DNA of 64,000 nucleotides from Amoebidium appalachense (GCA_963693365.1 CAVNZM010000001.1:13688418-13752417), one strand, 5' to 3'. Counted from the first letter of the stretch, positions 16,748 through 42,812 are shown. Notes: generated by a model not told the origin, from the letters alone. Made by a program: numbers and translations.

Positions 16748-17206
16748 ACTACATTAAGGGGCGCGGCACCCCACGTTAGTGACGTCACAAAGTGTGACGT
16801 CACTAACACAGGGTGGCGCACCCCTTAGGATATGGCAGATATGCATATGGGATATGGCGATATGCAGTATGATATGGGTGTATATTGTGATTAGGATATG
16901 GATATGGGTATGGATATGTACAGGAGCACGTGCACACACTGTGTGTGTGTGCATAAACACGTGCAGAGCACGTGGATTTAATTAAAATATTAAAGGGAAA
17001 ACGTGTCATGTGTGCGCGTGCACGCACGCGCACATGCGACACGTACACAGTTCTGAGATCAAAGGAATGCGACGGTGTGCACAAGGCGGCCAATGAGAAT
17101 TCGAATTCCGAATTCCTTGTACAAGGCGGCCAATAGTAATGCGGATGCACAAGGCGGCCAATGATAATTCAGTTCCAAAAGCCAGTTGCCGCACAAGGCG
17201 GCCAAT
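16748..17206 (+). repeat. Left terminal inverted repeat (459 bp)
   Basis: Reverse complement of 42353-42812; the only difference I saw is A4 vs A5 near 17177; ORF-track translations of both copies are identical. Confidence 0.96.
16755..16827. promoter_or_regulatory. Sub-terminal hairpin (perfect 15-bp stem, AAG loop, imperfect outer stem) with two TGACGTCA palindromes; putative origin
   Basis: gttagtgacgtcaca-aag-tgtgacgtcactaac at 16775-16807, bracketed by taagggg..cccctta. Confidence 0.7.
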
Positions 17207-17285
17207 CGGAGTTCAGGTTGGCACATTTTGGTTTAGGCGGCCAATAAGGACACAGAGATTAAGGATTTCGGTCCTCATTGGCCAC
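17080..17285. promoter_or_regulatory. Cluster of (CA)AGGCGGCCAAT CCAAT-box repeats
   Basis: Copies at ~17082, 17122, 17150, 17194 and 17235; mirrored and extended at 42269-42480; another copy at ~20426. Confidence 0.7.
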
Positions 17286-17424
17286 AAGCGCACCCAGCAT
17301 GTCGCCGCTGTGTACATAAGCATCCGCACACAGGCAACATCACACCAAGCAAACATGAGCCATACGTACACAGTTGAGGTGCACACCACAGTCACGTTCA
17401 CCACACCCCCCAAACAACAGCAAA

Positions 17425-18339
17425 ATGGTCAAGCCAACCCTGCTGCGTCAAACGACTGGTCTGTCCACCGTCAAAAGGACCAGCATCGCCGCGGCAAGCA
17501 GTGGCAAAGAAAACACCAACAACAGTGAGGGGCCCAAGATGGTGCAGTACAAGGAGGTGTTCCTCAACGGTGTGGGCAAGGCCACCATGGGCGCACCCTG
17601 GGTGACGAACGACGTGTTGGCCGTGCAGCTGTACAACCTGCCCAACATCAACATCATTGGGCAGATGCTCATCGAGTTGGTCCCCAGCACGGTTGCCTGG
17701 GATGCCAAGCCCACCATTAGGGTCAAGTCGCAACGCCGCCCTGAGCCCTTTGAGGTGGCCTACGCCGTTGACCTGTGGCCCTACGTGTGCAGCATGGCCA
17801 GGGACGTGTTGTGGATGCACAAGGACCACGAGATGCTCAAGGGGGTGGACGTGGACACCGTGCCTGTCAAGACCAGCAGCAACCTGTGGTCCAGGCATAC
17901 CCCCAGCCTGTACGATGTGCTGGGTGCCGACCCCGTCGGCAAGGAGGACATGGTGGAGGCACTGGGTGGCACCTACTTCAACGTGACGTTGGAGCTCCCC
18001 AACCCCCTTGGCCGCAACCCCTGCCTCTTCAAGCTGGGCAACAACGCTGCCTCCATCGACGAGTTTGTGGAGTTTATGAACTCCCAACGTGCCAAGTGCC
18101 GTGAGGTGACTGCCTGGGTGTCTGCAGCTGCCACCAGCGTCATCTACAACAAGAAGAACAACACTGTGCGTACCAAGCTCGTTGCCTGCAAGGTTCAGGT
18201 GTTTGACTTAGATGGCCTGATGGAGCTGGTTGGTGGTGAGGGGGGCGAGGGGGAGGGGGGTGAGGTAGACTTGGGGGTGGCTAAGCGTGCAGGCACGCCC
18301 ATGCCCGGTAATGACGATGCCAAAATGCTCAGAATGTAA
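17425..18339 (+). CDS. Putative single-stranded DNA-binding protein (T7 gp2.5/NCLDV DUF2738-like OB fold)
   Basis: Long ORF with GC3-rich codons; C-terminal strands VTAWVSAAATSVIYN..VRTKLVACKVQV followed by an acidic Gly/Glu tail; function inferred. Confidence 0.5.
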   Translation: MVKPTLLRQTTGLSTVKRTSIAAASSGKENTNNSEGPKMVQYKEVFLNGVGKATMGAPWVTNDVLAVQLYNLPNINIIGQMLIELVPSTVAWDAKPTIRVKSQRRPEPFEVAYAVDLWPYVCSMARDVLWMHKDHEMLKGVDVDTVPVKTSSNLWSRHTPSLYDVLGADPVGKEDMVEALGGTYFNVTLELPNPLGRNPCLFKLGNNAASIDEFVEFMNSQRAKCREVTAWVSAAATSVIYNKKNNTVRTKLVACKVQVFDLDGLMELVGGEGGEGEGGEVDLGVAKRAGTPMPGNDDAKMLRM

Positions 18340-39500: not shown

Positions 39501-42090
39501 CGTACATGGCCACAGCAAGGTACACAATGTGGATGAAGTGGGGGTTGTCGGGTGTGTGGTCGGGGGCTGGCACCGGCATGGTCTCAAAGTCCAGCACAAT
39601 GTCCCTGATGGGCTGCCTGGTCTGCTTCCACACACCCCCGGGTCCGCTGCCGTCATTGTCGGGCACGTGCCGTTTGCACACGTGTGCACCCACCCTGCTG
39701 CCGGCAGCATCCACCCTGACCCTCTGCCGTGCAGGTGACTCTCCCCCCTCCTCCCCCTCCCCCTGCTCGTTGGAGAAGCATGCCACCCTGTCACACACCG
39801 CACCGTCTGCATCCGTGTGTGTGCACATATACACACGCCGTTGGCCACTGAGCTTGCTACGTATGAGGCACGTGTGGTTGCCGGGCATATAGCCCCCACA
39901 GCCCTTGCAGGCGTAGTCGGTGCACAGGTGTTGTGTCCACGTGTCGTCCTTCTTGGCCCCGTGCTCACCCCCCTCACCCCCCTCCCCCTCCCCCTCAGAC
40001 ATCTGCATGAGGTCGACGGCATCATCCTCGTCATCACTCTCACCCTCGTCGTCTGACGACTCGACAAGGCAGGGTGGGGGGTCTGTGTCTGTGTCGGAGT
40101 CCTCCCCCTCCGTGTCCGTGGCATAGTCCCAGTCCTCCCCCTCGTCGTTGGAGCCTGCATCTGCCCCTGCATCGTACCCCCCTTGCTCCTGGGCAGTGTG
40201 CAGCCGGCGTAGACGGCGCACGCTGGCATACTTGAACTTGTAGAAGAACCGGCCGGCAGGATTGCCCGACACACACACCCTGAGGGCATCATCTCCACTG
40301 CCAATCATCCTGTACCCCTGCAGGCCGTGGGTGCACGTGGCCAGCCGGCACCAGAACACGGTGTCACAGAAGGATTGTTGCCGGCCGTCGGCCCTGGCCC
40401 CGGCCCCCTTGAGCTTGGTGCTGTGGTTGGCCATGCACCTGGCCGAAGGGAAGAGGCCACAGCAGTCGTCACAACGGTAAGGCCATGCATCCTCCCCCAC
40501 CCGTGCTAGCTCCACACGGCGCCCGGGGGTCCACACACAGGCATCTGCCTGGTCGATGTGGTTCCCCTTTGATCCACAGTTCCCACACCGGTTCACACAA
40601 CGGTGCACCCCCATGTTCTTGGATTGCACGGTCTGGTTGCAGTGGAAGCAGGTGCTGAGGCTCCGACGTACGGCCCCCGTGTGGTTGCCGTTGCGCAGGC
40701 GCTCGATGGTGTTGCTGACATTGGAGGGGATGGCCGTGAAGTGGCCCAGCTTCTGGGAGTGGCCAAGGTACATGGTGCACAGCTTGCCGGGGGGAAGGGC
40801 CGAGCTCACGTCCCCGTACCTTCTTGCCACCCTACCCTTGCTGTCCAGGTCCACCACCACCAGCCGTAGACGGGTGACTGACTGGGTCTCACTGGCAATC
40901 TGCATGTTGAGGGCATCCACGGCTGCACCCAACTGATCCACCGTCAGCCCGTCCTCTGCAGGCACAGGCAGCTTGTACTTGGCCCACAGCCGGCGGGTGG
41001 CCCTTGCCAGCCTGCGCAGGTAACGGTCCTGGAAGTTGCTCCTTGGGTTGATGGGTGGCTGCAGCAGGTTGCACACCCCACAGCCGGAAGACACAGACCT
41101 ACCCAGAGCCTTGTTGCCAATACCAATCACATCCATAGGGTCCAGTAGGTGGCACAGCACGTGGTGGTCCTTGAGCTTCATGAGGTCACCCCCATTGCCC
41201 AGGTTCTTACGAGTGTGCTCGGAGGGCAGGCTGCCGTTCTCGTTGCTGTTGGCTGCCTTGCTGACCCACACTGCCATACAGTACACCAGGCACAGCTGGG
41301 CACAGGAGGGGCCGTCGGCAATCTCAAGCAGCTGATGGTGGTCAAGCTCCTTCTCCCCTGTCACCTGCGGGTCGTTGCTGCTGCAGGCTGCCTTCACCAG
41401 GGTGGTCACATCCACCACGGCCTTGGCCTCCACCAGCTCCCGCAGCCACTGGGCTGTCACCCCTGTGAGGGTGGACAGGGACCCGCAGGCACCCTTCCTC
41501 ACCATGTCCTTGGGCCGGACCACGGTCAGATGCACACTGGATCGCCCGTCCATAAAGGTCTCGGCTGCACTCTGGGTGCGTTGGCGTATGTTCTCCATCA
41601 GCTTGAGCACCACGGCATTCACATCACCGTTGAACACGTCCATGGGGCCTGCCGTAAACACACGACGGTTGGTGACATCGGCGTTGGGGTTGCCGTCATC
41701 CCCCACCTGGTTGTCCACACCATTGGCCTGCACGTGCAAGCTGATGATGCGTACGATGATCATGTCCCCCACCTGCACATCTGCACGGGCAATGGCATCA
41801 AACAGCATAGCTGCAAAGAACTGGGGGAACTCGGTGACGTCCATGGTGCGCAGGGGTTGGTACTCGAGGGTGTGGCCGCGTACGCCCAACCCCCTTGCCT
41901 GCATGTCATCCACCCGTGAACGCAGCTGCCAGTTGCCCTCGGCAGACATGGCAATGATCTGGGGGTCATCTGGGTGGTTGATGGGGGCGGGGGCAGGGGG
42001 GAGGCCGGGGAGGGGGTGGGGGTGGGGGTGGTGGGCCCTGCAGGGCCTGCAGAAACGGGTTGGCTTGCAGGGCCTGCTGCGGGTCGGCAT
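36585..42090 (-). CDS. Protein-primed family B DNA polymerase polyprotein (terminal protein - vOTU protease - Zn fingers - exonuclease - VSR-like insert - polymerase); one frameshift at G6 37155-37160
   Basis: Exo motifs LDFET, HNGSGFDFHF, YCVKDV; polymerase motifs FGGRTE, DVTSLYP, KLFLNSLWGK, then YMDTDS, PKTYAY and KVKGI in the shifted frame. Confidence 0.95.
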
Positions 42091-42352
42091 CCAGTGCCCG
42101 CAGCAGGTCCTCTATGAAACCTTCCTGGCTGTCGTCTAACATCCTGAACAGTAATCTTAGATCTTAGCCACAATGTAATTGCCAGGCAGCGCCGGCAGCA
42201 AAAACATCAATAAACAGAACGCAAAATAATGATCCTGTGCGTGCGTAAGTGCGCCACCATTGTTTACACAAGGCGGCCAATAGGAAACCCAGGTTGACCG
42301 ATCCGGGGGCTCATTGGCCGCCTTGGAAATGGAATGTGCTATCTTAATGTTC

Positions 42353-42812
42353 ATTGGCCGCCTTGTGCGGCAACTGGCTTTTTGGAACTGAATTATCATT
42401 GGCCGCCTTGTGCATCCGCATTACTATTGGCCGCCTTGTACAAGGAATTCGGAATTCGAATTCTCATTGGCCGCCTTGTGCACACCGTCGCATTCCTTTG
42501 ATCTCAGAACTGTGTACGTGTCGCATGTGCGCGTGCGTGCACGCGCACACATGACACGTTTTCCCTTTAATATTTTAATTAAATCCACGTGCTCTGCACG
42601 TGTTTATGCACACACACACAGTGTGTGCACGTGCTCCTGTACATATCCATACCCATATCCATATCCTAATCACAATATACACCCATATCATACTGCATAT
42701 CGCCATATCCCATATGCATATCTGCCATATCCTAAGGGGTGCGCCACCCTGTGTTAGTGACGTCACACTTTGTGACGTCACTAACGTGGGGTGCCGCGCC
42801 CCTTAATGTAGT
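42353..42812 (-). repeat. Right terminal inverted repeat (460 bp)
   Basis: Reverse complement of 16748-17206. Confidence 0.96.

Follow-up and report, generated by a model that had tools for sequence, protein, structure and literature searches.

The window analysed here is the whole 64,000-nucleotide stretch GCA_963693365.1 CAVNZM010000001.1:13688418-13752417, and all positions are counted from its first letter. Within it lies a 26,065-bp endogenous Polinton-like virus (PLV) at 16748-42812, bounded by terminal inverted repeats (TIRs) and interrupting a long interspersed nuclear element (LINE), a retrotransposon. About 20 genes cover 87% of the element length, in agreement with the tight packing described in an earlier sequence-only reading of the window, and most of them are the best of the six frames by codon bias. 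The features, including open reading frames (ORFs) with lengths in amino acids (aa), are these:

14294..43709 (-): host LINE into which the element is inserted, its RNase H portion lying to the left (PF00075); uninterrupted copies occur in run contigs
16743..16747 (+): left copy of the 5-bp target-site duplication (TSD), ATGGG, supported by empty sites in run contigs
16748..17206 (+): left TIR, 433 bp perfect and ~459 bp with one 1-bp gap, holding two TGACGTCA palindromes and repeated GGCGGCCAAT boxes
17425..18339 (+): 304-aa ORF without a family, coding by codon bias
19170..20291 (-): 373-aa ORF without a family (ORF call, codon bias)
20543..21094 (-): rve-type integrase cut by a deletion, similar to the rve part of protein P0026
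20954-21928, 22147-22608, 23654-24277, 24525-25023 (+): four GT-AG introns, in run X9 only, mostly antisense to the integrase and fibre genes
21116..21742 (-): 208-aa Pro-rich ORF, weak codon signal
21709..22515 (+): multi-pass membrane protein without a family (six, perhaps seven, transmembrane segments), with splice acceptor 21928 and donor 22147 inside
22518..24523 (-): fibre-like gene B, split into 229- and 453-aa ORFs in this copy, N-terminal domain in common with fibre A
24542..26275 (-): fibre-like gene A, 577 aa, with 42-aa coiled-coil repeats; a putative fibre by its architecture
26302..27414 (+): probable minor capsid (penton) protein, 370 aa, an Atlas lead only
27461..27990 (both strands): two small ORFs, 79 aa (+) and 97 aa (-) (ORF call, codon bias)
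28032..28655 (-): 207-aa ORF with a short motif common to a family of 38 of 80 related environmental loci
28456..28986 (+): Cys-rich small ORF (ORF call, codon bias)
29015..29758 (+): A32-like packaging ATPase (PF04665) with an in-frame stop at 29459-29461
29771..31531 (+): double-jelly-roll (DJR) major capsid protein (MCP), 586 aa, frame open; structure model matching the PBCV-1 capsid
31580..32005 (+): 141-aa ORF (ORF call, codon bias)
32039..34572 (+): gene for a Pro-rich part (90-bp repeats) and a Lys-rich part (15-bp repeats), in this copy probably a single gene broken in two; the downstream frame is open from 32431
34592..35059 (+): two small ORFs, 78 and 63 aa (ORF call, codon bias)
35177..35935 (-): VLTF3-like late transcription factor (PF04947, E 5e-12)
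36585..42090 (-): protein-primed DNA polymerase (pPolB; PF03175, E 2e-35) with a terminal-protein (TP)-like region, vOTU, Zn fingers, exonuclease, VSR-like insert and palm; frameshifted near 37168
42353..42812 (-): right TIR, inverted match to the left TIR
42813..42817 (+): right copy of the TSD, ATGGG

The TIRs are 100% identical over 433 bp (16748-17180 and 42380-42812) and reach about 459/460 bp once a single 1-bp gap is allowed, which bears out the ~460 bp first reported; the element opens with ACTAC and closes with GTAGT. The 5-mer ATGGG stands on either side. Contigs from the uninterrupted LINE join both flanks with only one ATGGG between them, and the 5-bp duplication is thus exact; these contigs are paralogous LINE copies and not necessarily the empty allele. 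The AC..GT ends and 5-bp TSD of the sequence-only reading therefore stand. Run contigs compared with the element edges had loose ends at 42813 and, in all four runs, at 16747. No Rfam family was matched within the element.

The element is full-length yet defective, with at least three core genes broken, and it is therefore not the intact virus that the word "complete" in the sequence-only reading implied. The ATPase carries the stop already listed (PF04665 is matched at E 2e-8 when the stop is read as X), and at position 29459 a different letter was present in all four runs at full depth. The pPolB frame changes near 37168, ahead of the catalytic DTDS motif, where a short indel was seen in 4/4 runs. 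The integrase, overlooked by the first reading, ends after its second catalytic Asp, with a deletion at 20554/20555; contigs of X7, X8, and X5 continue from there with other sequence (~500 letters in one), three of the four runs being informative and the fourth barely covering the spot. The 229- and 453-aa ORFs of fibre-like gene B are probably one gene, because an indel at 23941 lies between them in 4/4 runs and the second frame is open across that position, as far as 24161. The ORFs at 32039 and 33205 are probably one gene as well; an X7 contig has two gap letters within 32027-32707. The MCP, the penton, and one fibre are still open. As assembled, this copy alone is incapable of the replication and release, integration, or packaging steps.

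Could the copy be intact and its breaks be errors of assembly? The TIRs are identical across their 433 bp, some of the breaks are 1-2-letter indels, and the breaks were judged from the assembly and run contigs rather than from raw reads across the locus. However, the integrase is short of ~500 letters and the ATPase break is a substitution, neither of which is a homopolymer error, and this copy departs from the majority contigs at many scattered positions, as expected of a distinct copy. We judge assembly error to be very improbable. At position 16808 this copy departs from the X7 and X8 majority contigs, but the departure is mirrored between the two TIRs, which suggests that at least some differences are older than a recent insertion.

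Other copies are represented in the public data, the stretch being present in 20 of the 24 listed runs. Host flank contigs have a depth of 15 in X7 and of 25 in X8 (1068 bp, zero differences), whereas the closest subfamily has a depth of ~350-460 over the element; a second subfamily, 85-90% alike across the MCP, which has diverged, has a depth of ~180 in X7. Element depth relative to flank depth suggests ~15-35 copies, although contig depth is a poor measure of copy number.

A single close relative of the MCP (53%) was found, along with 283 more distant proteins; of the 150 that were listed, 99 were aligned, leaving out nine short and the 42 weakest. The model based on this alignment (pLDDT, the predicted local distance difference test, 79) is a double jelly roll, and its fold matches were PBCV-1 at Z 26.3 (root-mean-square deviation 2.9, 359 aligned), faustovirus at 24.6, Sputnik at 18.4, mavirus at 17.7, and adenoviruses at ~15. 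This ranking contained no solved PLV or Maverick capsid, and so it does not fix the capsid class. None of 31 proteins, the MCP and 30 close relatives, matched a capsid Pfam family, including PF21738 (0/31), which we take to be the Maverick capsid family. No virophage MCP Pfam family was matched by the element ORFs, and a PDB sequence search with the MCP profile matched no capsid. The DJR fold of the capsid is confirmed, and its class leans toward non-Maverick. In an unrooted MCP tree that included no reference Maverick hexon, the window MCP fell inside a nine-row clade (SH-aLRT, the Shimodaira-Hasegawa-like approximate likelihood-ratio test, 96). Organism names on two of its eight relatives in that clade were Sphaeroforma arctica and Pirum gemmata, both ichthyosporeans (PMC11244446; here and below, literature statements draw on the available parts of the cited sources). 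The host lineage is very probably ichthyosporean.

For the penton candidate, the Atlas look-alikes were viral clusters including DUF5901 (12% of members) and Sputnik V18/19 (26%), with a score of 0.97 and recognition below threshold, making this a lead only. Only two proteins have the fibre N-terminal domain in common (E 8e-12), not three as first claimed; the 453-aa ORF showed no similarity (best E 1.9) and probably represents the latter half of one of these two. No adenain was detected by Pfam, PHROGs, NCBIfam, or motif, as in the first reading, with several ORFs still unannotated and without folds.

To collect environmental loci, an alignment of 13 proteins belonging to a separate MCP-tree clade served as query and gave 323 confirmed metagenome matches, 80 of them kept; the window MCP's own clade as query gave zero metagenome loci, and the viral and metagenome contigs scanned held no confirmed close relative. 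The window MCP matches 78 of the 80 loci (best E 1e-25, 26% identity), and the two halves of its ATPase match 22 and 26. VLTF3 was found by BLAST in 14/80 loci, Pfam-confirmed in 14/14, and by profile in 46/80; among loci of at least 15 kb, 22/24 have VLTF3 by profile and 17/24 have pPolB. The rve domain was found in 0/80, and no maturation protease or integrase was found among 139 environmental ORFs scanned (34 of the 42 large ORFs, the 14 VLTF3s, and 91 mid-size ORFs from eight loci). Two of seven whole environmental contigs tested have TIRs; L034 and L042 are apparently complete ~20-kb linear genomes with TIRs, and L034 has MCP, pPolB, and VLTF3, with no integrase found. MCP, ATPase, VLTF3, and pPolB without a detected protease are therefore a shared plan and not a quirk of this element. 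A lipase family was matched at E 1e-4 by 0/34 of the large environmental ORFs scanned and by nothing in the window. GH18 glycosidases or alginate lyases occur in loci L022, L026, L034, and L062; L054, L064, and L072, and are possible clues to a host cell wall.

That the family now lives only within genomes, as a self-synthesising transposon without virions, is unlikely in our view. Its many near-identical copies, the lack of a close relative among the viral or metagenome contigs scanned, and a report that no particles were seen in Amoebidium (PMC11244446) would all suit such a life. Against it, the MCP, penton, and one fibre are open here, the majority contigs lack the ATPase stop, the second subfamily retains a diverged MCP, and the distant relatives are free 20-kb genomes, of which the two with TIRs among seven tested are part.

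The polymerase has other affinities than the capsid. The pPolB aligns with Maverick-type enzymes through the vOTU Cys/His residues, Zn fingers, exonuclease, VSR-like insert, and palm, confirming this part of the first reading, and its TP domain aligns weakly with relatives. The window pPolB has the VSR-like motif, as do 29/30 of its nearest matches, vs 0/11 environmental pPolBs. In a tree of 36 rows, from which six of the 30 nearest matches were left out, the window-like and environmental sets separated with an SH-aLRT of 100. The integrase matched the rve part of P0026 at E 6e-9 and E 8e-9. P0026 and P0027, from a chytrid record and a dragonfly record, have pPolB and rve domains in a single protein, and may be fusions or joins in gene models. 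From the pPolB split it follows that the polymerase, and likely the integrase, came from a source other than that of the capsid; module swaps are reported to be common in PLVs. As far as their sequences indicate, then, the capsid and polymerase modules of this endogenous PLV are of different origin, as the sequence-only reading proposed in describing a chimeric gene set, though the copy that carries them is defective. The apparent novelty lies in a combination: a Maverick-type pPolB stands beside a DJR capsid, an A32 ATPase, and a VLTF3 whose matches are free aquatic viruses of ~20 kb.

The same data bear on whether this is a true adintovirus or Maverick (Polintoviricetes) whose protease disappeared and whose VLTF3 was captured from a giant virus, in line with a published suggestion (PMC11244446). 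The Maverick-type pPolB with vOTU and VSR insert, together with rve, speaks for this, as do an adintovirus protein at rank 6 in the viral fold search with the MCP and a PF21738 cluster scoring 0.97 in the Atlas. However, neither the MCP nor its 30 closest relatives match PF21738, the sequence relatives of the MCP already have VLTF3 and showed no protease or rve, and the ends and TSD are unlike those of vertebrate Mavericks. A true Maverick thus seems quite unlikely and, by its capsid, the element is probably not an adintovirus, although it is Polinton-like in its workings. We instead consider it likely that the element is a defective integrated copy of a multi-copy PLV of a likely ichthyosporean host. 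Its capsid module would be akin to that of free aquatic viruses with VLTF3, and module exchange would probably have supplied its polymerase and integrase, both of Maverick type.

Several observations weigh against this interpretation. The pPolB comparison set was picked by likeness to the window, which favours the split, and the VLTF3 comparison set consisted only of environmental PLV proteins. The environmental loci are only ~26% identical and come from a different MCP-tree clade, within which the window clade is not nested, and the penton candidate had no match to the environmental penton profile. The copy number leans on contig depth, with the weakness already mentioned. CGC/GCG depletion failed as a host marker because values were mixed, at 0.48 for the element and 0.21 for the LINE around it, against 1.17, 0.94, and 1.19 for three further regions. 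Finally, two properties reported for the most similar Amoebidium elements differ here: no Dam methyltransferase was found (no Pfam match and no N6-MTase motif in six frames), and the element is 26 kb rather than ~29-30 kb, while demethylation in Amoebidium reactivated no capsid genes and no particles were seen (PMC11244446). Dam presence may vary among the four reported clades.

Those Amoebidium elements, 44 "adintoviruses" of ~29-30 kb with VLTF3, Dam methyltransferase, both capsid proteins, and PolB, were classed by PolB, with four clades reported, and their VLTF3 was suggested to stem from a giant virus; many giant-virus insertions are present in the genome, and demethylation reactivated 32% of adintovirus genes (PMC11244446). 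With them the window element has in common VLTF3, a major and a candidate minor capsid protein, an adintovirus-like PolB, and long terminal repeats, and also tens of copies, several clades, many degenerating members, and transcription under some conditions; as there, VLTF3, MCP, and PolB lie in a TIR-bounded multi-copy insertion. Likened by description, the element has a good probability of belonging to this family. The available part of that account makes no mention of integrase, TSD, capsid class, or splicing.

Zephyrvirus VC123/VC126 are likewise ~25-kb PLVs with a capsid module related to nucleocytoplasmic large DNA viruses (NCLDVs), pPolB in some, and VLTF3 in ~30% (bioRxiv 2026.06.19.733378). 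VLTF3 and pPolB, here together in a genome of about that size, also occur in the environmental MCP relatives, whose gene plan resembles that of these clusters. About half of the VC123/VC126 members have a large lipase-domain ORF, which was not seen in this element, and the available text gives no endogenous member or host for them; compared by description, the element adds rve and a Maverick-type pPolB. Group 1 Mavericks/Polintons, i.e., adintoviruses, resemble the element in their TP-vOTU-pPolB layout, rve, A32/FtsK ATPase, TIRs, and TSD (PMC8502044, PMC8097293), and both a pPolB with vOTU and an rve integrase, truncated in this copy, are present here. The element differs from them in its MCP outside PF21738, AC..GT ends, 5-bp TSD, VLTF3, likely non-animal host, and lack of a detected adenain, one of the adenovirus-like virion genes by which adintoviruses are defined; vertebrate Mavericks have AG..CT ends and 6-bp TSDs (PMC8097293). 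PLVs of "Polinton configuration" combine pPolB and RVE with a divergent MCP in 28 viruses, and the same source noted novel MCP genes in Sphaeroforma, with no ichthyosporean element genome given in its available part (PMC7805220). Mavirus and endogenous mavirus-like elements (EMALEs) likewise have pPolB, rve, 3-6-bp TSDs, and multiple copies in a protist, but their virophage-type MCP and protease were not seen here, and the element's pPolB retains its exonuclease (PMC8547959). Mavirus, Mavericks, and PLVs usually leave 5-6-bp TSDs (PMC8547959, PMC12220804). The DJR MCP, A32-like ATPase, and TIR-bounded genome within 15-45 kb place the element under the PLV umbrella. The Mriyavirus markers HUH endonuclease and VLTF2 had no match among 24 element ORFs, and the pPolB and TIR layout points elsewhere. 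Because such TSDs and pPolB+RVE with a non-Polinton MCP are already in print, and because the family is probably that of the Amoebidium "adintoviruses", the undescribed lineage suggested at first is unlikely; a wrongly filed lineage is more likely.

All 12 copies of GGCGGCCAAT and all five of TGACGTCA in the window fall inside the element, mostly in or beside the TIRs, with one GGCGGCCAAT copy at 20427. We take GGCGGCCAAT to be a CCAAT box and the TGACGTCA palindrome to be a CRE/ATF site. Run X9, with zero depth on host DNA 11950-13617 and uneven depth on the element, appears to be RNA. Five joints in X9 are missing from the other three runs (among the 15 shown of 19), and all but one of them have the GT-AG borders of + strand introns, with CAG acceptors rich in pyrimidines; the genes called intron-less at first are so as ORFs, but spliced joints do occur in this one run. 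The introns are antisense, cut the membrane-protein ORF, and open no long frame, and thus resemble cryptic splicing of read-through RNA; the joints imply that some copy is transcribed in the nucleus. In X9 and two other runs from its study, 78-83% of capsid-region words are present, as counted without regard to strand. An adenovirus-like late leader was considered and rejected, since the model with the introns joined puts 57 ATGs ahead of the penton start, yields no new long ORF, and reduces the membrane protein to 152 aa. A narrow literature search, which does not show absence, found no published account of spliced antisense transcripts of Polinton-like viruses.

In intact members, pPolB would copy the linear genome from both TIR ends, with its own terminal-protein domain as primer and vOTU as the releasing enzyme, as in a published TP-vOTU replication model (bioRxiv 2024.03.18.585575) with which the domain layout here is consistent. 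The rve integrase would insert the genome, leaving the 5-bp duplication that is observed. Host RNA polymerase II would transcribe in the nucleus from the CCAAT/CRE-like boxes, both boxes and spliced joints being present; VLTF3 may act on late genes; and the A32 ATPase would package the genome in a DJR shell that bears penton and fibre proteins, no adenain taking part.

The trigger may differ, and it is the only point at which a virophage-like dependence on a helper departs from this scheme: intact copies would be silent until giant-virus infection, with VLTF3 linking them to giant-virus late transcription. Several PLVs and mavirus behave so (bioRxiv 2026.06.19.733378, PMC7805220), and Amoebidium has many giant-virus insertions and gave no particles from demethylation alone (PMC11244446). 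However, the element has a polymerase of its own, promoter boxes of host type, and spliced transcripts, which favour transcription by the host in its nucleus, and the MCP is nearer to PBCV-1 (Z 26.3) than to mavirus (17.7) or Sputnik (18.4), although fold distance says little on lifestyle. Helper dependence is possible, but we think it has well under an even chance. A broader reading, put forward tentatively and at somewhat less than even odds, is that a separate clade of integrating viruses resides in ichthyosporeans and is the first endogenous branch of Zephyr-like NCLDV-related PLVs to be linked to a host. In that clade, VLTF3 would have been inherited with the capsid module, not gained from a giant virus in co-infection; the pPolB and integrase would be Maverick replacements; and nuclear transcription, capsid module included, would continue in a culturable animal relative.

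Among the remaining genes, the 304-aa ORF, perhaps an ssDNA-binding protein, had no matches in homolog and family searches, the 373-aa ORF had no family or PDB match, and the membrane protein had no PDB match; the latter, first read as a 7-TM (seven-transmembrane) protein, is multi-pass but has six hydrophobic segments above the cut-off. The motif of the 207-aa ORF was matched by a hidden Markov model at E 1e-4 among 21 window proteins, in a charged region, and is weak. The Pro-rich/Lys-rich product may have a core or DNA-binding role. VLTF3 is present, as first read; its start is uncertain because its 5' end adjoins a purine run and an overlapping 107-aa ORF (35748-36071), which has no match to the VLTF3 profile and is unsupported as its N-terminus. 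Between convergent genes, 18340-19170 holds a 150-bp duplication and CA microsatellites, and a Cys-rich short frame with stops from 18314 is perhaps a decayed Zn-finger gene. Outside the element, the interrupted LINE (14294-16747 and 42813-43709, -) is very high-copy, with depth in the thousands, and is covered by X9 too; a second LINE (5123-9521, -) is apparently intact, with a 403-aa ORF1 and a 1078-aa ORF2 with reverse transcriptase (PF00078). A ~500-bp direct duplication lies in host DNA at 11940-12935. On the + strand, 44300-47541 is a host gene of several exons whose Cys/Thr-rich product has repeated domains and is probably secreted (no Pfam match for one exon scanned), 55009-56454 is a long host exon with a 481-aa open frame and no Pfam match, and 60495-63000 has exons with poly-C-rich introns (no Pfam match for one exon scanned), which we assume from their likeness to encode an MDR/ABCB transporter.

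This copy is dead, and its family has probably been reported before; the interest lies in classification and in the spliced RNA. If the capsid module is of the VLTF3-bearing aquatic PLV type, a large virus group without a known host would gain a culturable host lineage next to animals. The claim of adintoviruses outside animals would then rest on a swapped polymerase, and the role of VLTF3 in a small virus would become testable.

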